From Hyphomicrobiales bacterium (GTDB lineage: Bacteria > Pseudomonadota > Alphaproteobacteria > Rhizobiales > OSC116), in assembly GCA_016744975.1 (NCBI GenBank), contig JADGDI010000005.1, positions 1 to 57,790 on the forward strand: a stretch of DNA of 57,790 nt, written 5' to 3'. The notes under the pieces were generated by a model, which did not search any database, was not told the origin of the DNA, and was given only the letters and a program-made list of their open reading frames with translations. Below, piece by piece: positions 19,262 to 30,720 of the stretch (positions are counted from its first letter, which is position 1; every line of letters begins with the position of its first letter). Made by a program: the position numbers and the translations under genes.

Positions 19262-20515
19262 CTAAGATATGAGTGCATTCATGGCTTTTAAGAATATAAT
19301 AACCTCATGCTCGGTGTTATAATGGCATAGCGAGACACGGATGCAGCTTTTAAGACCAAGGGGTGTCAGAATGTTACCTGAATAGTGATCTGCTCGTCGA
19401 ATATGCACGCGAATGCCCCTTGCGGAGAGTTCTGATACGATGCTTTTAGAACTATGACCTATAACAGTGATTGAAACCAGCCCTTCGCGGTGTGGATTGT
19501 CGTTCCCCGCAATCACATGAACCTCTGGCATATCCAGCAGGCCTTTGGTAGTGCCGTTGCCTGACAACATAACATCAATGAGTAACTTCTCATGTGCTAA
19601 AATTGCGCGACCAGCAGCCTCGATCTTTGAACGTTGATCGGTCGCGTTTGAAACTCGACCGCCAAGCCATTCAAAATATTCTGTAACTTTAGAGAATGTT
19701 GCATAGGCGCCTGCATCCCTTGTACCCAGTTCCCATGATGCATCTGGTGAACCGATCAACGTGTCATGTGGCATTGTTGCGAGCCGATCTGAAACCCAGG
19801 CAATTCCGTAACCGTGCCTTGAAAATACTTTATAAGGTGAAATGACATATCCATCGATATCATAACTCTCAATATTCAGCCCCCCATGGGCGGCATGCTG
19901 GATGCCATCAATAATAATCACGCAGTCAGGTGATATTTTCCGAATTGCTTTTGAAATCGCAGCAACATCCACGGAAATACCAGTGACAGGCGAGGTGTGT
20001 AAAATTGTTGCTACGCGGGTTTCAGCACTGATGTGCGCCAGATAATCATTTGCTGTAACGGTGCCAGTTTCTATATTGTGTGGTACAGCTTGATAGGTTT
20101 TACCTGCAATTTTGGCCCAGCGTATACAGGCACTTTTTGAGGCGGGGTGTTCTAGCGTGCTGCCCACAACTTCACCGCCTGCTGCTGTGCCAAGGCATGC
20201 AGTTCTTATCAGGCGAAATAATAGTTCTGTTCCGCTTTCACCGACAAAAACTTGACCATTCGGTGCATTAAAAAATGTCCGAATATCTTCTTTTGCTTGT
20301 GTGATTGCTTGTCCAGCTTCGTGTGACGCTGGGTTGTTGCGACCCTGATTATCGGGTATTGCTGCATATTCGGTTGACTGCTCAACAACTGATTTTAAGG
20401 TTAAAGAACCGCCTGCATTTTCAAAGAAAATACGTTTTCCTTGCACGGGGCAATTATCAATCAGGCTGAACTGGTCCCGAACTTCATCCATTAATCCTGG
20501 AATAGTTGTTAGCAT
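19262..20515 (-). CDS. Class V aminotransferase / cysteine-desulfurase-like PLP enzyme, substrate unknown
   Basis: It has a fold-type I class V pattern with a putative PLP lysine in ..YVISPYKVFSRHGYG... I prefer the start at 20515 (MLTTIPG..), which is preceded by GAGGGAGA. The ORF track extends to 20587. Confidence 0.65.
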   Translation of the reverse strand: MLTTIPGLMDEVRDQFSLIDNCPVQGKRIFFENAGGSLTLKSVVEQSTEYAAIPDNQGRNNPASHEAGQAITQAKEDIRTFFNAPNGQVFVGESGTELLFRLIRTACLGTAAGGEVVGSTLEHPASKSACIRWAKIAGKTYQAVPHNIETGTVTANDYLAHISAETRVATILHTSPVTGISVDVAAISKAIRKISPDCVIIIDGIQHAAHGGLNIESYDIDGYVISPYKVFSRHGYGIAWVSDRLATMPHDTLIGSPDASWELGTRDAGAYATFSKVTEYFEWLGGRVSNATDQRSKIEAAGRAILAHEKLLIDVMLSGNGTTKGLLDMPEVHVIAGNDNPHREGLVSITVIGHSSKSIVSELSARGIRVHIRRADHYSGNILTPLGLKSCIRVSLCHYNTEHEVIIFLKAMNALIS

Positions 20516-20628
20516 CTTTATCTCCCTCATCTTATTGTTGTGGTCATTCGCGCCAGAGCTAAGCACAGCTTGCACATTTCTTGGCATTTTCCTAAAGAGT
20601 ATAGCAATGAAAGTCCGAATGGGTTAGA

Positions 20629-21522
20629 GTGAATTGGTTGTATTCATCAAAAGGAAAAGCTTTGGATATTCGATTTCTTGAAAGTCTTGTTGCTGTGGTT
20701 GATAATGGGTCAATCTCTGGTGCAGCAAGGGCGCAGGGCTTGACTGCTACTGCCGTAAGCCAGCGCATTCGAGCTTTAGAGCAGGAATTTGGAACAAAGC
20801 TTTTGGTGCGATCTGGCCATTCGGCACTGCCATCTAAAACCTGTCTGAACTTGCTGCCGCAGGCTAGGGGATTGATTCAGCAGAGCGCTAAACTAAAACG
20901 TGATTTTGGCAGCTCTGTTTTATCTGGGCCGTTTCGAATTGGCGCCATTGAAACTGCTTTGTTCCAATTGATACCAGCTGTGGTTAAAAACCTATCCCGT
21001 GATGCACCAAATTGTGACCTTTCGGTAATGCCGGGCACATCAATTCAACTTTATCAGATGTTAGAAAAAGACCAGATTGACCTTGCGGTGATTGTTACCC
21101 CACCTTTTGTTATTCCGAAAATCTATCATGTTGAGGAATTGGCATCACAACCTTATGTTCTGATTCAAGGCATTCAGAACGGCCCTGTTAATCAAGATGA
21201 TCTAATGAAACAACCGATAATTCTATATGACCGAAAGTCATGGGGTGGGCTTGAGGCGTGGAAATGGTTGGCTAGGCACATTGACCCCAAAAATATTCTG
21301 TGCGAGCTTGATGCGATGGGAACAATTGTGGCGATGGTCAAAAGTGGCCTGGGCATTTCTCTTTTACCAAATTGGTCGGAGCTAATGGATGATGCATCAA
21401 CACTCTCATCTATTGCTCCAATTCCGCCAATTCCTAAACGCCAGATCATTTTGCTCTGCAAAAATACGGAAAAAAACGAACCGTTATTCAAGATGGTTCG
21501 AAGTGCGTTTTTGACATTATGA
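20629..21522 (+). CDS. LysR-family transcriptional regulator
   Basis: It has an N-terminal wHTH (..SISGAARAQGLTATAVSQRIRALEQEFG..) and is divergent from the PLP enzyme gene. The start is GTG. Confidence 0.8.
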   Translation: MNWLYSSKGKALDIRFLESLVAVVDNGSISGAARAQGLTATAVSQRIRALEQEFGTKLLVRSGHSALPSKTCLNLLPQARGLIQQSAKLKRDFGSSVLSGPFRIGAIETALFQLIPAVVKNLSRDAPNCDLSVMPGTSIQLYQMLEKDQIDLAVIVTPPFVIPKIYHVEELASQPYVLIQGIQNGPVNQDDLMKQPIILYDRKSWGGLEAWKWLARHIDPKNILCELDAMGTIVAMVKSGLGISLLPNWSELMDDASTLSSIAPIPPIPKRQIILLCKNTEKNEPLFKMVRSAFLTL

Positions 21523-21671
21523 GTTGTTAGGGAAATAATATTCAACTATCTCAAACTGAGACATGTGCTTTAAACACTGAATTGAATTTATCGGCTGGGG
21601 TATGTTTTTGATTGCAAATAGGGTGAAATTTGGCCCTACTGGGTGTATAGTCTCTGAGTTTGGTGGGTTAA

Positions 21672-21694
21672 ATCTTGACAGATTCTGTCAAGAT
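21672..21694. promoter_or_regulatory. Perfect 10-3-10 palindrome ATCTTGACAG-ATT-CTGTCAAGAT, a candidate operator overlapping a TTGACA -35 box upstream of the SAM decarboxylase operon
   Basis: Read from the sequence. The core is near-identical to the one at 26814-26834. It lies 48 nt upstream of the ATG at 21742. Confidence 0.6.
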
Positions 21695-21741
21695 GCCTAT
21701 CTATATCTAAATAGAGCATTTGTTGAGGGAAATAAGACGCG

Positions 21742-22107
21742 ATGAATATTGGCAAGCATCTTATTATTGATCTTAAAACCAGCGATATGGCTGAGCGGTT
21801 AAAACTTGCTGATTTGAGTTATATCCAAAAAATTTTGCTGGATTCAGCAGAAGCAGCTGGCGCAACGGTTTTAAAAATAGAAGGTCATAAGTTTGGTGAT
21901 AAAGCTGGCGTAACTGCTTTTGCAATGCTTGCAGAAAGCCATATTTCAGTACATACTTGGCCAGAAAATGGCTTTGCGGCATTTGATATATTTATGTGCG
22001 GTGATGCGGGGGAGCAGCTTGAAAAGTCGGTTTATGTTATTCAACAAGAATTTTTAATGGCAACACTTAGTAAGCAGCTTATAGAGCGTGACTATTCGGG
22101 GGAGTAG
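21742..22107 (+). CDS. speH: Pyruvoyl-dependent S-adenosylmethionine decarboxylase proenzyme (small SpeH/SpeD type)
   Basis: It is 121 aa. It carries the hallmark self-processing and active-site stretch ..LAESHISVHTWPE.. and a downstream ..DIFMCG... Confidence 0.8.
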   Translation: MNIGKHLIIDLKTSDMAERLKLADLSYIQKILLDSAEAAGATVLKIEGHKFGDKAGVTAFAMLAESHISVHTWPENGFAAFDIFMCGDAGEQLEKSVYVIQQEFLMATLSKQLIERDYSGE

Positions 22108-23196
22108 ATGTTTAATTTACTATATATGTTTAGAAAACGACGATATTTTAGAAGTTTATTCGTTGTTTCTGCGACTACAAAAATATTGATATTATTATTC
22201 ATTTGCCTATTTAGTCTGCATGTTTTGGCGATGATGTTGTTTGAAGGATGGACGCTTGAGGTTGCTTTATGGTTTACAGTAACCGCAGGTACTACCGTTG
22301 GATTTGGTGATTATGCACCCGCCACTGGTTTGGGACGATTGGCAACGGTGTTTTTGATTTATGTGCCTGCCATTCCGACCATTGCATTTTTAACGGGGCG
22401 TCTGGTTGATAAAATTGTTGGGCGGCGCGAGCGCAAACTTAAAGGGAATTGGAATTGGAAAATGGTTGATCACATTGTTTTTATTAATTATCCAAATATT
22501 GGTGGTGATATATTCTTTAGGCGGATTGTTGAAGAGCTTAAAAATTCGGTCAGTATGACGGAACAAAAAATTATTATTATTACAGATAAAAAACCCGATG
22601 GACTCCCGCAAAGCCTTGTTGACTTGAATGTGAAATTGGTTTCTGGTCGCCCTAATAGCGAGGCCTCACTGGTGCGTGCAGCGGTCGATAATGCTCAAAA
22701 GGTAGTTATTTTATGTGAAGATATTAGCGATAGTCGCAGCGATTCTTTGGTGTTTGACATTGCCTCATTAATCTATCAATCAAATAATGATAAAAAGCCA
22801 GAATTGGTGGCTGAGGCGATTTTGGAAACTACAAAAACGCGGCTTCAGTCGCTTGGTGTTGCAAGCATATTGCGGCCAATTCGGGCTTATCCTGAGTTGA
22901 TTGCGCGAACGATTATCTCTCCTGGTTCGGAGCAGATTATAGAAAGCCTGTTTGATAGTGATAAAGAAGAATGTTTAAAATTTACCTGTCATTTTAATGG
23001 GCTTTGGTCGGAACTTGCGACCAAGATTATATTGGCTGATTTTGGCACTCCGATTGCGGTTGAGCTCGAAGATGGTTCGATCCGCGCTAATTTAAGAAGC
23101 AATGATATAATTGCTACAAAGTCGGTATTTATCATCGTGCCAGAAGGCAATAATTTGGTGCCAGAAGCGGATCAGGAACTAAATTCTCTAATTTAA
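22108..23196 (+). CDS. Two-TM K+ channel with a cytoplasmic RCK (TrkA-N/TrkA-C-like) domain
   Basis: It has the selectivity-filter signature TTVGFGD between two hydrophobic helices and a C-terminal RCK-like region with a degenerate glycine motif (HIVFINYPNIGGD). Its ATG directly abuts the speH stop (TAGATG). Confidence 0.75.
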   Translation: MFNLLYMFRKRRYFRSLFVVSATTKILILLFICLFSLHVLAMMLFEGWTLEVALWFTVTAGTTVGFGDYAPATGLGRLATVFLIYVPAIPTIAFLTGRLVDKIVGRRERKLKGNWNWKMVDHIVFINYPNIGGDIFFRRIVEELKNSVSMTEQKIIIITDKKPDGLPQSLVDLNVKLVSGRPNSEASLVRAAVDNAQKVVILCEDISDSRSDSLVFDIASLIYQSNNDKKPELVAEAILETTKTRLQSLGVASILRPIRAYPELIARTIISPGSEQIIESLFDSDKEECLKFTCHFNGLWSELATKIILADFGTPIAVELEDGSIRANLRSNDIIATKSVFIIVPEGNNLVPEADQELNSLI

Positions 23197-23217
23197 AAGC
23201 TAAGAAAGAGAGGTATT

Positions 23218-24135
23218 ATGATTATAAGAAATGCAATTCTCGGATTATTTGCCCTAGTGTTATTGGGTGGTTGTTCGGACCCAAATGCGCCAATTATCGC
23301 CAATGAAAGCAAAATTGTGCAATTGCAAATTGACGGGCTTAAGCAAGGTTTATCGGCAGGGACACTGGTAAACGCGGTGATTTTGAAATCCTATATTGAT
23401 AAAACTATGGTTTCAAACCCAGAATATAAAGATATTTTAAGCAGTTTGGCTGTTCAGTATACGGCTAAAAATGGCAATCTTGTATCATTGGAAAAACGCC
23501 TTGCAAATATTGGTGACGTTAAGCAAAGTTCCGATGCCGTTGCGGATTTGGAAAATTTAAAACTGGCCTCAAGTAAAGATATTTTTAACCAAACCTTTAT
23601 GGATGAAATTAACACTGTTGCAGCGCTTAGTAATGGCGCATTGCAGCCACTTAATTTGTCAGAAAATGAGCCTGTGGTTGCTGGCCAGAATTTGGTTGGT
23701 AACCCGACTTATGGTAGGTGGCAGTCGTCAAGTGGTGGGTCTTTTTGGGCTTGGTATGGGCAATATGCGTTTTTCTCGAGTTTATTCAGGCCACCATTTT
23801 ATAATAGTTGGTATTATAACCGACCTTGGAGTTACGGCTATGACCGTTACAATAACAATTATGGATCACGCAGTTGGAAAAATAGTGAAACCCAAACACT
23901 TGATAAAAATTATAAAAAAGTGCGTGAATATGGCAAGGTGAATAATAAAAAACCAAGTGCCTATGCGACAAGAACAAATGGCAAAGTGAAAGCAACCGCC
24001 ACAGGTAAGGGCTCTTCTTTATCGTCAGTTCGCAAAACGACTGCAAAGCTTGGGCCGTCGGCACGTAAAAGCTCACCATATTCATCAAGCAGCCGTAGTG
24101 GCAACCGCAGCCGTAGCAGCCGCGGTGGAAAATAA
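23218..24135 (+). CDS. Lipoprotein of unknown function with an aromatic-rich segment and a Ser/Arg/Lys-rich tail
   Basis: It has a signal peptide with a lipobox (..LLGGCSD..) and a W/Y-rich stretch (..FWAWYGQYAFFSSLFRPPFYNSWYYNRPWSYGYDRYNNNYG..). Its tail reads ..SSSRSGNRSRSSRGGK. The RBS is AGAGAGG. Confidence 0.6.
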   Translation: MIIRNAILGLFALVLLGGCSDPNAPIIANESKIVQLQIDGLKQGLSAGTLVNAVILKSYIDKTMVSNPEYKDILSSLAVQYTAKNGNLVSLEKRLANIGDVKQSSDAVADLENLKLASSKDIFNQTFMDEINTVAALSNGALQPLNLSENEPVVAGQNLVGNPTYGRWQSSSGGSFWAWYGQYAFFSSLFRPPFYNSWYYNRPWSYGYDRYNNNYGSRSWKNSETQTLDKNYKKVREYGKVNNKKPSAYATRTNGKVKATATGKGSSLSSVRKTTAKLGPSARKSSPYSSSSRSGNRSRSSRGGK

Positions 24136-24155
24136 TTAGATTATCGGAGATTAAA

Positions 24156-25055
24156 ATGGAATTTTTAAACACATATTTTGGACTTAGCAGCGATTATCTT
24201 TTGGTGCTTGGTGTAAATTTAGTCATTACCGCGCTGGTGTTAATTGCGATTAGGGTTGTCATTGGGATGATATCCAATGTTAAAATGATTGATGGTTTAT
24301 CGCTTGAGGATAACCCTGCTATGGGCATCTCGTTGGCGGGCATTATTTTTGCCGTTGGTATTATTATGACGGGGGTGATTGGTGGTGACGCGTCGGATGA
24401 CTTAATCAAAGAGATTGTCTTGGTTGCTGTGTCAGGTGTGATTGGCATTGTTTTGGTGTTTTCATCGCGGGTGATATTTGATAAAATATCAATTCCCGGG
24501 TTTAAAATGCGCGATGCGATTATGCAGGGTAATATTGCGGTTTCAGTCATTGATGCGGGCAATGTGATTGCCTCTGCTTTGATTATTAAATCAGTATTTT
24601 TAGTGATTGATACGACTACAACTAATCTGATTATCATTGGATTGGGCAGTTTTATTGTCTCACAATTATTGCTGACTATTGCTAGCTATTACCGCATATT
24701 CTTTTACAACCGTGCCCATGGCAGAAGCCTTCAAGATAACATAATGAAGGGTAATGTTGCATTGGCATTGCGTTTTGCGGGTTTTAGAATTGGTATGGCA
24801 TTTGCCATTAGCGGGGCGTTAACATTGGCACCTTTAAGCATGGATATATTTGCATTAAGCTTATTGATTTGGTTGGGTGTAAGTTTGGTTCAAATGTTGT
24901 TGGTGGTTATCTTTAGTTTGATTTGTGACAAGATATTATTGTTGGGCATTGATACCCGTGACGAAGTTGACAATAAACAAAATATTGCTGTTGGTGCAAC
25001 ACAGGCAGCCCTTACGGCTGTTATTGGTTTGATTATTTTCACGCTTGTTTCGTAG
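24156..25055 (+). CDS. Polytopic membrane protein with four DUF350 (YjfL)-like repeats
   Basis: There are four internal repeats of the pattern x-N-[PIV]-A-[MVL]-x(4)-A/G-x..: DNPAMGISLAG, QGNIAVSVIDAG, KGNVALALRFAG and KQNIAVGATQAA. Each is followed by a hydrophobic helix, and the pattern resembles the E. coli YjfL repeats. Confidence 0.55.
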   Translation: MEFLNTYFGLSSDYLLVLGVNLVITALVLIAIRVVIGMISNVKMIDGLSLEDNPAMGISLAGIIFAVGIIMTGVIGGDASDDLIKEIVLVAVSGVIGIVLVFSSRVIFDKISIPGFKMRDAIMQGNIAVSVIDAGNVIASALIIKSVFLVIDTTTTNLIIIGLGSFIVSQLLLTIASYYRIFFYNRAHGRSLQDNIMKGNVALALRFAGFRIGMAFAISGALTLAPLSMDIFALSLLIWLGVSLVQMLLVVIFSLICDKILLLGIDTRDEVDNKQNIAVGATQAALTAVIGLIIFTLVS

Positions 25056-25082
25056 GCATTTTGACATTGAACAAAGCAAGAG

Positions 25083-26807
25083 ATGAATATGGTGGATGGA
25101 TTGCAGGAAAAAAGCAGTTTCAAGCTTACGACGTTTTTTATTGATGTAAGCTTGATTAGCATTCTTGCTGTATTGGCTGGTTGCGGCATTGTTTATGAGT
25201 ATTTATTATCGCATTATGCAGGGCGTGTGCTTGGGCTAATGGAACATGCCATTTTTACCATGATTGGGGTGATGATTGTTTCGATGGGCGTTGGTGCGCT
25301 GCTAGCAAATAAAATTAAAGATGCCAATAAAGGCTTTGTAATTATTGAATTATTGATTGCGTTTATTGGCTCTATATCGATTATTCTAATTGCCTGGCTC
25401 ATTGCTTTTACCAATCAATTCCCTAGTATATTGGCCGAGAATTATGGCATGCCTGAGGATTTAATTCCTGTTGGTGGTGCTATTGCAAGGCTTAAACAAT
25501 TTGCCGAAATATTCCCCTTTATAGTTGGGTTTATTTTGGGGGCTTTGGTTGGCATGGAAATTCCGCTGATTGCTAGAATTAGAGAAGAGATTTATGCGGT
25601 ACGTCTTAAACATAATACTGGCACGGTTTATGGGGCTGATTATATAGGGGCGGGGGTTGGAGCAGCTATATTCATTGTGTTTTTATTAGCCATAGCACCT
25701 GCAAAGGCCGCTTTATGGGTATCCTCGGTGAATATGATTGTTGGATTTATATTTTTAGCCGTTAGGTGGCGCAAAATATCGAATAACATTATCTTGGCGG
25801 GTTTGCACATATTTTTGGCGGTGTTTTTATTTTTGTTGATGCAAAATATTACTAATATTCACCAATCGCTTGAAAATACACTTTATAAAGATGAAGTGGT
25901 GTTTAGCCAAAATACTGACTTTCAGCATATCACCCTGACCAAGCGCCAAATTGGCAATGCAGCGCCTATTCATACGTTATATTTAAATGGTAGGTCGCAA
26001 TTTTGTTCCTGTGATGAAGCGCTTTATCATGCCATGTTGGTGACGCCGTCAATGTTGGCCTCGGCAAGGCATAAGAATATTTTACTGATTGGCGGTGGTG
26101 ATGGGCTTGCCGTTCGGGATATTTTAAAATGGCAGCCAGAGCAAATTGATGTTTTAGAGTTAGACCAAAAAATGGTGTCGCTGTTCTCAAAGCCGATTAA
26201 AGTTGATGGGCAAGTTGTTAATGATGCATTATTGGCACTAAATGAAAATTCATTTTCTGATAAACGGGTGAATGTGATTTATGGTGATGCGTTTAACAGT
26301 GTTGAGCAACTGATTGCTCGGGGTGAAAATTATGATGTGATTATTGTTGATTTGCCCGACCCATCGCACCCTGACTTAAATAAATTATATTCCAAGCAAT
26401 TTTATACCAAAGTGAAATTATTATTAGCTGGGGATGGCGCGATTGCCATTCAGTCGACCAGCCCTTACCATGCCAAGGACGCGTTTTTAACCGTTGGGCT
26501 GACATTGCGCGCTGCTGGTTTTGGATTTGTTGAGCGATATCATACCAATATACCGACATTTGGTGAATGGGGATGGAGCATTGCAACCTTGCATGGTCAG
26601 GCTGCATCGAGCCGAATTGAACGTGATTTTAAGCCCATTCCCAAACAAATTGCAATTGATCAGGATTTTATTTTGGCGAGTTTTAAATTTGCCAATGGGA
26701 TTATTGAAAGTGAAAAGCATTTAAGTTACAATAGTATAGATAATAATTTAATGTATTTATTGCATGAGAAGTCATGGTTGAATGAAGAAATTTTAGTTGG
26801 AAATTAA
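25083..26807 (+). CDS. Membrane-anchored polyamine aminopropyltransferase (spermidine/spermine synthase-like)
   Basis: The N-terminal ~260 aa are multi-pass hydrophobic. The C-terminal domain carries aminopropyltransferase motifs (..ILLIGGGDGLAVRDILKW.., ..VIIVDLPDPSHPDLNKLYSKQFY..). Confidence 0.8.
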   Translation: MNMVDGLQEKSSFKLTTFFIDVSLISILAVLAGCGIVYEYLLSHYAGRVLGLMEHAIFTMIGVMIVSMGVGALLANKIKDANKGFVIIELLIAFIGSISIILIAWLIAFTNQFPSILAENYGMPEDLIPVGGAIARLKQFAEIFPFIVGFILGALVGMEIPLIARIREEIYAVRLKHNTGTVYGADYIGAGVGAAIFIVFLLAIAPAKAALWVSSVNMIVGFIFLAVRWRKISNNIILAGLHIFLAVFLFLLMQNITNIHQSLENTLYKDEVVFSQNTDFQHITLTKRQIGNAAPIHTLYLNGRSQFCSCDEALYHAMLVTPSMLASARHKNILLIGGGDGLAVRDILKWQPEQIDVLELDQKMVSLFSKPIKVDGQVVNDALLALNENSFSDKRVNVIYGDAFNSVEQLIARGENYDVIIVDLPDPSHPDLNKLYSKQFYTKVKLLLAGDGAIAIQSTSPYHAKDAFLTVGLTLRAAGFGFVERYHTNIPTFGEWGWSIATLHGQAASSRIERDFKPIPKQIAIDQDFILASFKFANGIIESEKHLSYNSIDNNLMYLLHEKSWLNEEILVGN

Positions 26808-26813
26808 ACTCAG

Positions 26814-26834
26814 GCTTGACAGATCCTGTCAAGC
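26814..26834. promoter_or_regulatory. Perfect 9-3-9 palindrome GCTTGACAG-ATC-CTGTCAAGC, the second copy of the candidate operator, upstream of the yjfI/pspA-like operon
   Basis: Read from the sequence. It lies 6 nt after the aminopropyltransferase stop and 36 nt before the ATG at 26871. It contains TTGACA, and TATATAAT follows downstream. Confidence 0.6.
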
Positions 26835-26870
26835 GCCCATATATAATATATGACGAAAAGGAGACGGAAT

Positions 26871-27278
26871 ATGTCAAATAAGCTTCTAGCTCAATTAGAG
26901 CTAATTGAGCAGGGTAAAATGGTCATTGAATTTGAATTGCAACCGATGGCTAATAATGATGAAATTATTCAGGTGATTGTAAAAGATCAGGAAGAATTTC
27001 CGATTAATATTACTGAAACCGATGGTGAAATGATTTGCATGGTCAAATTATTTGATGCCGAAGAGCTAAAAGATGGTGCTAGCAATGACATGCATGAAGT
27101 GATGTTATCGGCCAATTTGGCTTTGCCACTATCGAGCTTTGGCAAGATTGGCGGTACATATATGTTGTTTGGTGCTTTGTCGGCCAACTCGAAGAGCGAA
27201 AGTATTGGCATAGAGATTGAAACCTTAGCAGGCAACACATTAGAAGCCATTGGCTTAGTTGCAGATTATTTGAAATAG
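26871..27278 (+). CDS. Small acidic cytoplasmic protein, YjfI-like (DUF2170-type). Assigned mainly by size and position upstream of the PspA-family gene.
   Basis: It is 135 aa, the ATG is preceded by AAGGAG, and it lies immediately upstream of the PspA/IM30 gene, as in E. coli yjfI-yjfJ. I cannot verify sequence-level family membership without an HMM search. Confidence 0.45.
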   Translation: MSNKLLAQLELIEQGKMVIEFELQPMANNDEIIQVIVKDQEEFPINITETDGEMICMVKLFDAEELKDGASNDMHEVMLSANLALPLSSFGKIGGTYMLFGALSANSKSESIGIEIETLAGNTLEAIGLVADYLK

Positions 27279-27287
27279 GAGATGAAA

Positions 27288-27980
27288 ATGAGTATCTTTT
27301 CTAAAATTGTAACCGCAATTCGCGGTGGTGCTAGTGAAGTTGGCGAAGGCATTGTGGATGCAAATCTAGTGCGCATTATGGATCAAGAGATTAGAGATTC
27401 TAAAGCGGCGGTGGAAAAAGCCCGTTCTGGACTTGCTGACCTGATGGCTGAAGAAGCTGGCTATCAACGCAAAGCAACTGAACTTCAAGACAAAATTGAA
27501 GAATATGAAGGTTATGCTGTGCAAGCATTGGACAAAGGTGATGAGCCTCTTGCGATTGAAATAGCCGAGAAAATTGCCGATTTAAGTGGTGAGCTTGACT
27601 ATAATACAGGCGCAACCACACAACTTAGCAATAGCATTGCCACCCAAAAGGATTTTTTGCGCAACTCTGAGCGGAAAGTGAAAGATTTTGAACGTGAAGC
27701 TAAAATGGTAAAAACGACAGAAACAGTACAGAAAACGACAGCTGCACTTAGCTCGAACTTTACCGCTACTGGCTCTAAAATGAACAATGCGCGCCAATCG
27801 CTTGAACGGGTTAAAGCGCGCCAGCAACAAAATGCCGACCGTTTAAAAGCTGGTGAAGCACTTGCTGCTGAATCTACAGGTAGTAACCTAGCGGCTAAGC
27901 TTGCAAACTCTGGCATTACTAAAAACTCTGGCCAAGCAAGTGATATTTTAGCAAAACTAAAAGCCAAACAAGAGAAATAG
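27288..27980 (+). CDS. PspA/IM30-family protein (YjfJ-like)
   Basis: It is a long coiled-coil protein whose N-terminus (MSIFSKIVTAIRGGASEVGEGIVDANLVRIMDQEIRD..) aligns by eye with E. coli PspA (MGIFSRFADIV..KLVRLMIQEMED..). Its C-terminus ..ILAKLKAKQ.. matches the PspA ..LAQLKAKM... Confidence 0.8.
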   Translation: MSIFSKIVTAIRGGASEVGEGIVDANLVRIMDQEIRDSKAAVEKARSGLADLMAEEAGYQRKATELQDKIEEYEGYAVQALDKGDEPLAIEIAEKIADLSGELDYNTGATTQLSNSIATQKDFLRNSERKVKDFEREAKMVKTTETVQKTTAALSSNFTATGSKMNNARQSLERVKARQQQNADRLKAGEALAAESTGSNLAAKLANSGITKNSGQASDILAKLKAKQEK

Positions 27981-27988
27981 GCAACAGC

Positions 27989-28618
27989 ATGTTTTCAAAA
28001 TTATTTGGTAAAGATAAGAAGGCCGCTCGGCCTTCTTTAAACCACCCTAAAGATTTGCGGGCTGGGGATTTGTTTGAGCTTGGCTTATGCCCAATTTCGG
28101 AAATTAGTGGCAAGACATTTACCATTTTAGAAGCCAATACGCTTGATTATGGTGATGGGCTTGAGATTGCTTTTGTCATTAGCGCAGATCGCCAAAAATA
28201 TGGCCTGTCGGTTATCTCAGATGATGAAGGCGAGCGCTTGAGTTTTTCTAAGCTTATCGGCCATAGTGAAATTGACCAGCTGTTTGGTTTGGACAGTTTT
28301 GCCAGTTTATTTGATGATGATATGGGTGGTGGTTTAGCCATTCAAACAATTTCAGCTGCGCTTAGTGACTGGGCGATTGAAGGTGATTATTTTAGGACGG
28401 TTGATGCGCTTAAGGGGTATTTTGAAAAAGGCGACCATCGGTTAAATTTAAATAGCAAGCGAGCGGCTGAGTTTGACTATTACCAATTGGTTGGTGCAAA
28501 TTCAGACTATTCTATTGAGGTTGAGGTTTATGATGGTGATGAAACAGAGGTTTATATTTGCCGTAATTTACCCATGCATACGATAGATAAATTATGGCCG
28601 CAAGATGCTAGTGGTTAA
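27989..28618 (+). CDS. YjfK-like (DUF2491-type) protein, function unknown
   Basis: It is 209 aa and lies directly downstream of the PspA-family gene, as in E. coli yjfJ-yjfK. It is acidic with a DxDxD-rich segment. The family assignment is not verified. Confidence 0.4.
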   Translation: MFSKLFGKDKKAARPSLNHPKDLRAGDLFELGLCPISEISGKTFTILEANTLDYGDGLEIAFVISADRQKYGLSVISDDEGERLSFSKLIGHSEIDQLFGLDSFASLFDDDMGGGLAIQTISAALSDWAIEGDYFRTVDALKGYFEKGDHRLNLNSKRAAEFDYYQLVGANSDYSIEVEVYDGDETEVYICRNLPMHTIDKLWPQDASG

Positions 28619-28629
28619 ATGGTGGTTTC

Positions 28630-28947
28630 ATGAAATTATCGGATAAATTATCAAAAAAACTAGAAAAAGTGACGGCTGTTTCGATTGCGATTGATTTAAG
28701 CGAAAAAATGGGGCGTCGGTTGCGTGTGGAGGCGGCGCTTGAAGGCATGTCGCCACAAGATCAGTTGCGAAAAATGGTTGGCTTGTCATTTAAAAAACCG
28801 CAAAGGCCACGTGTTACTTTAAGTTTGCGGGAAGAGGATTACATATTGCTTGCCAAACGTTATAAGATTAACTCTTGTAATAAAAACGATATTAAAAAGC
28901 GTGTTATGGAAGAAATATCAAAGACTTTACATGATCAAGCTTGTTAG
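28630..28947 (+). CDS. Small protein with two ribbon-helix-helix-like repeats (candidate DNA-binding regulator)
   Basis: It has two segments with an RHH-like pattern: ..VSIAIDLSEKMGRRLRVEAALEGMSPQDQLRKMVG.. and ..RVTLSLREEDYILLAKRYKINSCNKNDIKKRVMEEI... It starts 11 nt after the previous stop. Confidence 0.4.
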   Translation: MKLSDKLSKKLEKVTAVSIAIDLSEKMGRRLRVEAALEGMSPQDQLRKMVGLSFKKPQRPRVTLSLREEDYILLAKRYKINSCNKNDIKKRVMEEISKTLHDQAC

Positions 28948-29172
28948 AGCTTTTAGATTGACATATATGTCTACGCATTCATCTGGGTTATATAGCATTG
29001 GATTTTATAATCTAAGGTGAAAGTGTTTTAATCGTTTTGGGTTTTGATAAATAACCGTTTAAAAGAGAATGTGGCGTGATAAGAAAACAGGATACAAGTA
29101 GCTTTGTATTTTGTATTCATAGTTTTTCAACTTATTTGGATTATTTTATTTGATGAGAAAATAGGAATATTC

Positions 29173-30114
29173 ATGCCGACTGATATAAATAAAACTCAAA
29201 CACATAAGCCATTAAATGATGAACACATAACTTTGCTTGAAAGGGTAAAGTCTTGGATATCTTCTGATAGCAATTATTTGTTAACGGATAAGCATATTGG
29301 TGATAAAGCGGGCTCTCATTCAATTCATATAGATTCTACGCATCACCCGCTTAACTATTGGCCGCAAGAGCGTATTGATGTTCTAAATATTTTGTGGGGT
29401 ATTGGTAATCGATTGCCCGGCAATGATGCCTTTAACAGAAAAATATTTGAGACAGCGGCTTTAGACAGTAAATCACGTGTGTTGGATGTTGCCGTTGGTT
29501 TTGGCGCAGGTGCTAGGATGATTGCCAAAGAAAATTTCTCCAAGGTTGATGTTATTGAGAATTATGTAGAAATACTACCGTATTTGATGAAGTTAACTTC
29601 TGAAAATAAGCTGATGCATTTTATTTCTGTATTGAACGGAAATTTATTAGAAGCAAATATTCCTAAGGCAAGATATGATTTGGTTTATGGGCGTGAAGTG
29701 TTCTTTAAAATTAAAAATAAACAAAATGCTATAAAAAAATGTGTTAATGGCCTTAAAAATAATGGCAAATTTATTTTTACAGATTTTGTTTTAACCGATG
29801 ATGCATCTGCATATGGCTCGTTTGAAAATTGGTCTGAGCGAGAAAGACAGTCTGTATACCCTGTTTCGTTACATGATTATAATAATATAATGCATGGACT
29901 TGGGTTAAAAATTGCGCCTGTACAAGATTATTCTCAAATATACATAAAACATGTTAATGCTGGGTGGTTAAGGTTGCGCAGTTATGTGCGCGGCGAAAAA
30001 ATTGATGAGGATTTTGTCAACATCATGGCGCTTGAAGGTGATTTATGGCTTTCTCGAGTGCGCGCACTTCGAAGTGGGAAGTTGAAATTAATTCGGTTCA
30101 GTGTTTCTTTGTAA
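29173..30114 (+). CDS. Class I SAM-dependent methyltransferase, substrate unknown
   Basis: It has motif I (..VLDVAVGFGAGARMIA..) and a post-I/II pattern (..YDLVYGREVFF.., ..LKNNGKFIFTDF..). I prefer the ATG at 29173. The TTG at 29104 would add a hydrophobic 23-aa leader. Confidence 0.7.
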   Translation: MPTDINKTQTHKPLNDEHITLLERVKSWISSDSNYLLTDKHIGDKAGSHSIHIDSTHHPLNYWPQERIDVLNILWGIGNRLPGNDAFNRKIFETAALDSKSRVLDVAVGFGAGARMIAKENFSKVDVIENYVEILPYLMKLTSENKLMHFISVLNGNLLEANIPKARYDLVYGREVFFKIKNKQNAIKKCVNGLKNNGKFIFTDFVLTDDASAYGSFENWSERERQSVYPVSLHDYNNIMHGLGLKIAPVQDYSQIYIKHVNAGWLRLRSYVRGEKIDEDFVNIMALEGDLWLSRVRALRSGKLKLIRFSVSL

Positions 30115-30138
30115 ATTGATATTAGGTGTAAACGGATA

Positions 30139-30720
30139 TTAAGATTTTTTAACAAATTTTGTTAAAATTATGATTTTTTGGCCATTTACACGCCCTTCAA
30201 TTTGCTCGGCATTATTTACAACCAAAGAAATATTACGAACGGCAGTGCCGCGTTTTGCAGTGAAAGTTGTGCCTTTGACATCTAGGCTTTTGGTTAAACT
30301 GACTGTATCGCCAGCTTGTAAGATGGTGCCATTGCTGTCTTTATGAATGACTTTATTTTCATCATTATCGTTTATAGTGAATCCATTTTTCGCCCATGCC
30401 AATATATCATCTTCTAGATAAATCATTTCAAGGGCTTCTGAGGCCCAAGTTTCTTGGGATAAATTGTTTAATAGGCGCCATGCTATAACTTTAACGGGCG
30501 CTACCTCACTCCACATGCTTGTGGTTAAACATTGCCAGTGATTAGCCGACATAGCTGTTGTGTTTGAGATTTGGTCGAGGCAGATTTGACATGCAAAAAT
30601 ATAGTCTTCTAGGCTTTTGCCATCTTTGGGGGCGACTATATGCGGCTCTAGGTGTGATTTAGCGTCACATAATTCACATTTAGAGCCACTTCTATTTTGC
30701 AACTGTTGAATAATATCCAT
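30139..30720 (-). CDS. phnA: PhnA-domain protein (zinc-ribbon N-terminus plus PhnA C-terminal domain)
   Basis: It has a CxxC...CxxC N-terminus (..SKCELCDA.., ..FACQICLDQ..). Its C-terminus (..DSNGTILQAGDTVSLTKSLDVKGTTFTAKRGTAVRNISLV..) resembles E. coli PhnA. Confidence 0.7.
   Translation of the reverse strand: MDIIQQLQNRSGSKCELCDAKSHLEPHIVAPKDGKSLEDYIFACQICLDQISNTTAMSANHWQCLTTSMWSEVAPVKVIAWRLLNNLSQETWASEALEMIYLEDDILAWAKNGFTINDNDENKVIHKDSNGTILQAGDTVSLTKSLDVKGTTFTAKRGTAVRNISLVVNNAEQIEGRVNGQKIIILTKFVKKS

Follow-up and report, generated by a model that had tools for sequence, protein, structure and literature searches.

A proteobacterial operon linking a membrane aminopropyltransferase fusion to a YjfI/YjfJ-type PspA module, with a candidate ribbon-helix-helix repressor and its 13-bp operator

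The closest described relatives of the gene cluster analysed here are the operons of the 'second major group' of Ravi et al. (2024, mSystems). In the available portion of that paper (PMC11237479), these have six to seven genes, for a CesT/Tir(DUF2170)-PspA dyad, a seven-transmembrane (7TM) spermidine-synthase fusion, an 8TM DUF350 protein, a novel lipoprotein, a DUF4178 protein and sometimes a ribbon-helix-helix (RHH) protein. Our cluster spans ~21.6-29.0 kb of contig JADGDI010000005.1 (Hyphomicrobiales bacterium, assembly GCA_016744975.1), the 57,790 nucleotides of which are called the window below. By gene content it is a member of this group, with the same core genes, and the order of the shared genes was kept in the related loci examined. 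Additionally, it encodes an S-adenosylmethionine decarboxylase (AdoMetDC) and an RCK K+ channel, which the available text mentions for a 'third group'. The combination is already described in comparative genomics, and the component set adds nothing new. The first-pass annotation of the window had stated that no such combination has a demonstrated function. The function is indeed undemonstrated, but the combination itself had been described (PMC11237479 in its available portion, citing Li et al. 2019), and Ravi et al. offer there the same kind of hypothesis as the annotation did.

The reading that we put forward, and which we regard as evenly balanced, is that of a described proteobacterial operon joining a membrane aminopropyltransferase module to a PspA maintenance module and an RCK-gated K+ channel, and autoregulated by the product of its ninth gene (p9). 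The new detail of this analysis is a likely self-encoded repressor/operator pair, with a conserved 13-bp palindrome as the operator.

The cluster comprises, as annotated at first pass, nine consecutive open reading frames (ORFs) on the + strand (21742-28947); their intergenic gaps are 0-63 nt. Domains were called by profile searches with Pfam and NCBIfam. Its features are:

21674-21692, no strand: palindrome 1, CTTGACAGATTCTGTCAAG (core GACAGATTCTGTC), 50 nt 5' of speD, including a TTGACA -35-like hexamer
21742-22107, + strand: predicted class 1b pyruvoyl AdoMetDC (SpeD/SpeH type), 121 aa (PF02675, TIGR03330)
22108-23196, + strand: 2-TM K+ channel with cytoplasmic RCK domain, 362 aa (Ion_trans_2, Slo-like_RCK)
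23218-24135, + strand: basic lipoprotein, 305 aa (signal peptide, lipobox LLGGC; no Pfam family)
24156-25055, + strand: integral membrane protein with two DUF350 domains (DUF350x2, YjfL-like), 299 aa (PF03994)
25083-26807, + strand: multi-TM/aminopropyltransferase fusion (the fusion), 574 aa (PF01564, NF002956; alternative start 25089)
26815-26833, no strand: palindrome 2, CTTGACAGATCCTGTCAAG (core GACAGATCCTGTC), between the fusion gene and the DUF2170 gene
26871-27278, + strand: DUF2170 protein (YjfI/BacA; CesT/Tir-like chaperone fold), 135 aa (PF09938; longest ORF from 26850)
27282-27980, + strand: PspA/IM30 protein of the YjfJ subfamily, 232 aa (PF04012; probable start 27288, MSIFSKIV...)
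27989-28618, + strand: gene 8, acidic, soluble, strand-rich DUF4178-related protein, 209 aa (family-level DUF4178 matches; YjfK position)
28630-28947, + strand: gene 9, small basic protein p9, putative tandem RHH, 105 aa (two (strand)-helix-helix repeats)

The sister group of Ravi et al., the E. coli type, contains an ATP-grasp ligase, a K+ channel, and DUF350, DUF1190 and DUF2491 proteins (PMC11237479, available portion). E. coli yjfIJKLMC and the window share a DUF2170-PspA(YjfJ) dyad, a ~210-aa soluble protein, a DUF350 protein, a lipoprotein and an enzyme of polyamine chemistry. The enzymes differ. YjfC is annotated as an ATP-grasp peptide-spermidine ligase, with published activity, so that the E. 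coli cluster encodes a conjugating and not a polyamine-synthesis enzyme, whereas the window encodes an aminopropyltransferase; no ATP-grasp/GSP_synth domain was found in the nine window proteins or the neighbouring genes. YjfK is a DUF2491 protein, YjfM a DUF1190 protein and YjfL has one DUF350, in contrast to the DUF4178-like protein, the unrelated lipoprotein and the two DUF350 domains of the window; speD, K+ channel and RHH genes are absent from the yjf locus. In heat-adapted E. coli, yjfIJKL was upregulated and considered a candidate heat-tolerance operon (PMC12492005).

The bac cluster of Pseudomonas aeruginosa (PA3732-PA3729; BacA/BacB) likewise has a DUF2170 gene (bacA) followed by a PspA_IM30 gene. 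A biofilm phenotype was reported for it, no spermidine-synthase-like gene lies in or near the operon, and the CesT/Tir-PspA operon context is repeated in the same paper (PMC10948618). The classical Psp system (PspF-PspABC) has in common with the window the PspA/IM30 ESCRT-III-like protein with its N-terminal amphipathic segment. None of the nine cluster proteins matched PspB, PspC or PspF, and the PspA-like protein reached 24.8 bits on the PspA equivalog TIGR02977, versus a cutoff of 243. The promoter-like elements beside the window palindromes are sigma-70-like, whereas classical Psp uses the sigma-54 activator PspF. P. aeruginosa also has a dedicated second SpeD/SpeE-like pair, PA4773-PA4774 (speD2/speE2), tied to envelope protection by envelope spermidine. 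PA4774 is not known to be membrane-fused, and the pair, which PmrAB controls, has no known PspA, DUF2170 or DUF350 partners. The example AAN56744-AAN56747 of Ravi et al. comes from what we take to be Shewanella oneidensis. Li, Kurihara, Kim, Liang and Michael reportedly described, in 2019, AdoMetDC genes clustered with genes for a membrane protein-spermidine synthase-like fusion and DUF350; the window likewise has a class 1b AdoMetDC, a fusion with an N-terminal membrane and a C-terminal aminopropyltransferase-like part, and DUF350. It is for the linkage of AdoMetDC to the fusion that their work is cited by Ravi et al. (PMC11237479, available portion).

To place the cluster among its relatives, 80 loci encoding relatives of the fusion (L0xx below) were used, and their ORFs were searched iteratively with the window proteins. 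Genes downstream of the fusion gene were counted in the 61 proteobacterial-type loci with at least 2.6 kb 3' of it, and genes upstream in the 52 loci with enough sequence. Downstream, DUF2170 was found in 57/61 loci, PspA in 55/61, the DUF4178-like gene in 59/61 and the RHH-like gene in 55/61; DUF2170, PspA and the DUF4178-like gene occurred together in 55/61. Upstream, DUF350x2 and the lipoprotein gene were each present in 51/52 loci, and speD in 35/52. The usual gammaproteobacterial order was speD-lipoprotein-DUF350x2-fusion, followed by DUF2170-PspA-DUF4178-RHH-K+ channel. This adjacency spans metagenome-assembled genomes (MAGs) labelled Alpha-, Gamma- and Zetaproteobacteria, and Desulfobacterota. 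The first-pass annotation had joined the speD/speE-like and pspA-like genes in one system; by the locus counts, a lack of co-conservation is clearly contradicted, and the two units also have a cis-element in common.

In more distant phyla (L064-L080; MAGs of Calditrichota, Fibrobacterales, Spirochaetales, Myxococcota and Bradymonadia), only the fusion and DUF350x2 were found, often with the lipoprotein. A PspA homologue was nearby in 2 of 11 such loci, and neither the DUF2170, DUF4178-like and RHH-like genes nor a palindrome at the promoter position were found in L064-L080. Several of these loci have DUF350x2 ~0.9 kb downstream of the fusion gene, with a ~0.9 kb unidentified gene in between.

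The fusion matched Spermine_synth (PF01564; 113 bits, residues 313-506) and NF002956 (541 bits, cutoff 472), and ~7-8 hydrophobic TM segments lie within residues 19-253, in agreement with the earlier call of an aminopropyltransferase fused to a multi-pass membrane domain. Aligned with E. coli SpeE, it has kept GGGDG (G337-G341), D361, D402, D423-x-x-D426-P427, Q306, D311-E312 and Y315. These residues bind decarboxylated S-adenosylmethionine (dcSAM) or catalyse the reaction in SpeE structures, and because they are kept, the fusion is very likely an active aminopropyltransferase. Two family-specific features, the loop behind the catalytic Asp (DLPDPSHPDLNKLYS) and a PTFGEWGW motif, differ from canonical SpeE. 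The TM domain has conserved charged and polar motifs (YEYLLSHYAGR, GMEIPLIARIRE and GADYxGAGxGAA), and the structure search found no solved homologue of it. By tblastn, the closest relatives of the fusion were in MAGs labelled Hyphomicrobiales (86% identity), Alphaproteobacteria (68%) and Emcibacter (67%), followed by Zetaproteobacteria (~55%) and Gammaproteobacteria (43-50%).

The dcSAM for such a reaction would come from the product of the first gene. This protein scored 95.6 bits on AdoMet_dc (PF02675) and 108 bits on the TIGR03330 equivalog, versus a cutoff of 75.65. It carries ESHISVHTWPE, the ES/H self-processing site AESHISVHTWPE and the FMCG cysteine. Equivalog profile and Glu-Ser processing site thus identify it, at the level of sequence, as a class 1b AdoMetDC, and the first-pass call of a pyruvoyl enzyme stands. 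Neofunctionalised arginine and ornithine decarboxylase forms of AdoMetDC have been described (PMC10407285).

What the fusion acts on has to be weighed against the literature. In the available portion of PMC12803844, which cites Li et al. 2019, bacterial fusions of this membrane-aminopropyltransferase-like kind are experimentally uninvolved in spermidine/spermine biosynthesis, and polyamine synthesis as the role of the fusion is therefore doubtful. Aminopropylation of an acceptor other than a polyamine is more likely; section 19 of PMC11237479, as far as available, proposes 'aminopropylation of other substrates' or polyamine monitoring for the operon class. Of the earlier suggestion that the system makes or attaches a polyamine at the inner membrane, the making is doubtful on the same grounds (PMC12803844), and attaching something stays viable. 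Homologues of the fusion exist in fungi, for example a 594-aa protein of Pyricularia oryzae once named spermine synthase, and the bacterial proteins are the only non-fungal homologues of the fungal fusions according to the authors (PMC12803844). These homologues hint that the module occurs in more than one domain of life.

We infer that an acceptor associated with the membrane may receive a cationic group, aminopropyl or polyamine-like, from the module. The membrane module would consist of the lipoprotein, the 2xDUF350 protein and the multi-TM fusion, fed with dcSAM by the cluster's class 1b AdoMetDC, and the maintenance module at the cytoplasmic face of the DUF2170 chaperone-like protein, the YjfJ-type PspA and the DUF4178-like protein. 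In the proposed working, SpeD would make dcSAM, from which the fusion would pass the aminopropyl group to an amine presented by, or lying in, its membrane domain. Judging from published tests on bacterial fusions, this acceptor would be neither putrescine nor spermidine (PMC12803844, available portion). PspA, DUF2170, DUF4178 and the K+ channel would then buffer, or respond to, the change in the inner membrane. A more specific version, which we offer tentatively and think less likely than not as a whole, is that the fusion aminopropylates a non-polyamine acceptor of the inner membrane (a lipid head-group amine, such as that of phosphatidylethanolamine, or a protein amine). This would be a new cationic envelope modification, buffered by the YjfJ-type PspA/DUF2170/DUF4178 proteins and the K+ channel, and a tandem-RHH repressor in a single chain, with a DNA specificity that can be read from two strand residues, would switch the whole system.

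The operon occurs in many proteobacterial MAGs and genomes, its core reaches other phyla, and it ties an apparently active dcSAM-dependent transferase physically and genetically to an ESCRT-III-like PspA protein. Knowing the acceptor would reveal a new use of decarboxylated SAM and account for the recurrent link of polyamine chemistry with PspA, here by an aminopropyltransferase and in E. coli by an ATP-grasp peptide-spermidine ligase.

A different product is conceivable, though we judge it unlikely. The cluster could be a dedicated membrane route to a genuine polyamine (spermidine or a relative) for export or for deposition on the envelope, comparable to the surface spermidine of PA4773-4774. 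The TM domain or DUF350 would then be the exporter and the lipoprotein a periplasmic binder, and PspA and the K+ channel would offset charge or membrane stress. Such a route would fit the complete pair of dcSAM formation and aminopropyl transfer, with all SpeE catalytic residues kept, and true polyamine aminopropyltransferases were the best solved-structure matches of the catalytic domain. The N-terminal domain of the fusion has been described as transporter-like, with 7TM (PMC11237479, available portion), and the fungal homologue was reported to affect spermine levels, a report doubted in PMC12803844. The family-specific DLPDPSHPDLNKLYS loop and PTFGEWGW argue against it, as do the related clusters without speD, about one third, and the bacterial homologues that are uninvolved in spermidine/spermine biosynthesis (PMC12803844, available portion, citing Li et al. 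2019).

With aminopropylation of another acceptor as the preferred role of the fusion, the regulation of the operon can be considered. CTTGACAGATTCTGTCAAG and CTTGACAGATCCTGTCAAG were the only such sites in the window, with 0.03 expected by chance; near-identical palindromes before both units had been noted at first pass and are present at 21674-21692 and 26815-26833. In nearly every related locus, the fusion-DUF2170 gap contained one or two perfect 13-bp palindromes, in the forms GACATAWTATGTC, GCCATAWTATGGC and GTCATAATATGAC. The operator pattern G-N-CA[T/G]-A-W-Y-[A/C]TG-N-C was scanned over 1.31 Mb of related loci and matched 123 times. The fusion-DUF2170 gap held 95 matches, plus 4 that had been mislabelled (ORF over-extension or masked sequence). 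Another 20 lay upstream of the first gene (11 before speD, and 9 before the lipoprotein gene where speD was absent). Only 4/123 were elsewhere, versus an estimated ~5 expected by chance over the 1.31 Mb; that is, ~119/123 matches were at the two promoter regions. Sites in Aliikangiella maris (L020, 11719-11790) are of the GACATTTTATGTC type, with a TTT centre outside the A-W-Y pattern, which makes the count slightly conservative.

Where two operator copies occur, the usual spacing is 28-40 bp. Gammaproteobacterial loci have a first copy (O1) that overlaps TTGACA, followed by a TAAAYT -10-like element, and a second copy that precedes the ribosome-binding site. Sites laid out in this way are typical of repressors. 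In the window and its nearest relatives, the operator takes the symmetric variant form GACAG-ATY-CTGTC. The window also has GAGACGGAATATGTCAA at 26861-26877, which resembles the operator imperfectly and overlaps both the Shine-Dalgarno element and the probable start codon (ATG, 26871) of the DUF2170 gene; GAGACAnnATATGTCAA shows the same arrangement in the two nearest relatives having the DUF2170 start region (L003 and L067). GAGACGGAATATGTCAA might be a degenerate O2.

A further palindrome lies just 3' of the RHH-like gene, at 28960-28971. This 12-bp perfect palindrome, GACATATATGTC, gives TTGACA with the preceding TT, and it is located upstream of an unconserved gene for a SAM-methyltransferase (29104-30114). 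It resembles the gammaproteobacterial operator GACATAWTATGTC, with a centre of 2 bp and not 3, and among the sequences examined it occurred only in the window scaffold.

The candidate binding protein is p9. Aligned with 57 cluster-encoded homologues, it showed two (strand)-helix-helix repeats and a conserved K-x-Q-R-P-R linker. Direct Pfam and NCBIfam scans of p9, run to E <= 10, were of no use, and the best Pfam values were weak (RHH_10, E 0.027; FitA-like RHH, E 0.015). The AlphaFold2 (AF2) model had a pLDDT of 78, with helix pairs 25-37/42-49 and 68-78/85-104. A Foldseek search with this model gave no significant match (best E overall 0.8). The close-fitting local Foldseek matches, with a root-mean-square deviation (rmsd) of ~1-2.5 Å over 35-38 residues, were nearly all RHH proteins: NikA, Rv0298, FitA, ORF56, VapB12, PutA, Arc and CopG. 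For this reason, a helix-turn-helix reading of the second repeat was not adopted. Tandem-RHH AvtR and single-chain Arc were also in the list, with poor full-length superpositions only (rmsd 16-18 Å), and the p9 profile gave chance-level matches only against PDB sequences (RpoH region 4, E 0.47). We take p9 to be a likely, but not proven, tandem RHH protein; of the earlier tandem-RHH-like call, the two repeats and the RHH-like local matches are borne out, but profile and Foldseek matches are not significant.

Operator bases and p9 residues covary. Residue 22 of p9 was Asp with half-site base 2 = A in 76/80 arms, and was not Asp with C, T or G in 155/162 arms. Residue 18 was Gln with base 5 = T in 229/232 arms, and Ser, in the window's clade only, with base 5 = G in 9/10 arms. 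Both residues lie within the first predicted strand. The p9 strand of Oceanospirillaceae and Amphritea differs from GCC-type strands essentially only at residue 22. In the distant-phylum loci, p9 and the promoter-position motif are both missing, and two matches elsewhere in these loci are at chance level. Based on covariation and co-inheritance (a LysR-type gene is linked in 3 loci only), p9 is quite probably the protein that binds the operator. It would repress both units by binding the 13-bp palindrome over the TTGACA -35-like hexamer 5' of speD and of the DUF2170 gene, on target DNA that carries GACAGATYCTGTC. As p9, the last small protein of the system, would bind palindromes at both promoters, the system would be autoregulated. 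No mention of the operator, or of its pairing with the RHH protein, was found in the passages of the literature consulted, including those of PMC11237479. The proposed pair offers a practical handle for expressing the system in the laboratory, through deletion of the RHH gene or mutation of the 13-bp sites.

Several points weigh against the reading of the operon put forward here. The -10 elements of the window (TATCTA and TATATA) failed a consensus promoter scan and the hexamers end in A, so that the placement of the promoters relies on comparison with gammaproteobacterial loci. The covariation counts lack phylogenetic independence, and the Ser/G pairing comes from a single clade. The RHH fold of p9 is statistically weak (Pfam E 0.015-0.027, non-significant in Foldseek), and its strands are unformed in the monomer model. 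Finally, speD is absent from ~1/3 of related clusters, and the K+ channel likewise from ~1/3; neither is obligatory in cis.

The palindromes could instead be bound by another regulator, for example the LysR-type protein encoded at 20629-21522 or a global factor, or be promoter or structural elements only. The LysR gene directly precedes the cluster in the same orientation, the matches of p9 to the RHH fold fall short of significance, and a TTGACA -35 consensus inside the palindrome explains part of the conservation in some loci. We nevertheless think this improbable. As TTGACA is missing from GCCATAWTATGGC, the form used in many loci, a promoter consensus is no explanation for the conservation. 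Only 3/80 loci have the LysR gene beside the cluster, versus 55/61 with p9, and the LysR gene is probably unrelated to the operon for this reason. Operator bases covary with p9 residues 18 and 22, and the distant-phylum loci without p9 are, apart from the two chance-level matches elsewhere, also without the motif.

The two units might also be functionally independent, with housekeeping spermidine synthesis merely adjoining an unrelated PspA-type stress operon. Two separate promoter-like regions would allow separate transcription. The synteny and the shared operator largely refute this view, which we consider very improbable: the adjacency is kept in 55/61 loci across MAGs of Alpha-, Gamma- and Zetaproteobacteria and Desulfobacterota, the same 13-bp operator precedes both units in many loci, and the fusion family does not make spermidine according to the available portion of PMC12803844. 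An anti-phage or abortive-infection system with K+ channel and PspA-like membrane effectors, which a multi-gene membrane cluster with a small RHH-like regulator in MAGs of different class labels might suggest, is the least credible and was rejected, as PADLOC gave only a generic methyltransferase-fold match to the catalytic domain (mad2, E 2.7e-9), the cluster has no mobile-element or nuclease genes, and its GC content is continuous with the flanks.

Within the operon, the K+ channel (Ion_trans_2, 39.5 bits; Slo-like_RCK, 27.2 bits, cutoff 24) has two TM segments and the filter TTVGFGD, confirming the early assignment of filter and RCK domain. A homologue was in the cluster in 34/50 related loci. 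The channel gene is second in the window, versus last, after the RHH gene in unit 2, in most gammaproteobacterial loci (e.g. L011-L017, L023, L025, L027-L029). The window and some Alpha- and Zetaproteobacteria relatives have it in unit 1: it follows speD in the window, and precedes speD in L005 and the lipoprotein gene in L004 and L007.

The lipoprotein has the signal peptide and lipobox (LLGGC) of the earlier call, a conserved aromatic/Gly-rich core (GNPxYGxW...SFWAWYG) and a Ser/Arg-rich tail. Searches against Pfam and NCBIfam, even at E <= 10, gave nothing usable. Membership in DUF1190 (YjfM), for which the first-pass annotation had proposed a search, was not borne out and was rejected (BLASTP E 0.13; hhalign probability 0.7%; no DUF1190 match in 29 homologues). 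The window protein is homologous to the lipoprotein encoded upstream of DUF350x2 in 51/52 related loci; no public profile was available for 'Ctha_1186', the domain name used by Ravi et al. The DUF350 protein matched PF03994 with 111.8 bits over two stretches and has ~8 TM segments by hydropathy. DUF350 is thus present as annotated, but in two stretches and not four; 'four' fits only the older half-length view of the domain. The gene is directly upstream of the fusion gene in 51/52 proteobacterial-type loci.

The DUF2170 protein scored 94 bits on PF09938, is 27% identical to E. coli YjfI and matched the BacA crystal structure 8q8o (E 1.7e-9), in line with its first description as YjfI-sized. 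DUF2170 has been assigned as CesT/Tir-like (PMC11237479, available portion; PMC10948618). Its likely true start is at 26871, after AAGGAG, and a gap of 3 nt separates its gene from that of the PspA-like protein. The latter, already called a PspA/IM30 homologue, scored 119.7 bits on PF04012 and is 30% identical over its full length to E. coli YjfJ (E 3e-25). Sequence comparison therefore supports a DUF2170-PspA pair of the YjfI/YjfJ type.

Upstream of the cluster (19262-21522) lies a divergent gene pair, a class V aminotransferase on the - strand and the LysR-type regulator on the + strand. An Rfam scan of 20500-30500 did not reveal a riboswitch or other RNA. No terminator-like sites were found between the two units, and none convincing after gene 9.

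The gene 8 protein had no direct Pfam or NCBIfam matches, even at E <= 10. A word-index search yielded 5 relatives, and an exhaustive profile search 220 representative clusters (~210 aa). Of 60 family members scanned, 18 matched DUF4178 (PF13785, best E 1.5e-6) and none matched DUF2491. On this family-level evidence gene 8 is DUF4178-like, in the YjfK position and at best distantly related to YjfK, and the DUF2491/YjfK identity that its YjfK-like size had suggested was rejected. In hhalign, gene 8 and E. coli YjfK aligned with a probability of 70% (E 4e-5), over the N-terminal 60 columns only, with a shared MxxFFxxLFGK start. The AF2 model of the protein, built from 5 sequences, was of low confidence (pLDDT 56). 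Three of the proteins discussed here start alike: the DUF4178-like protein with MFSKLFGKDKK (27989-28030), E. coli YjfK with MSGFFQRLFGKDNK (L082, 4303-4350) and the PspA-like protein with MSIFSKIV (27288-27320). This common short N-terminal hydrophobic/basic motif may be a membrane- or partner-binding element.

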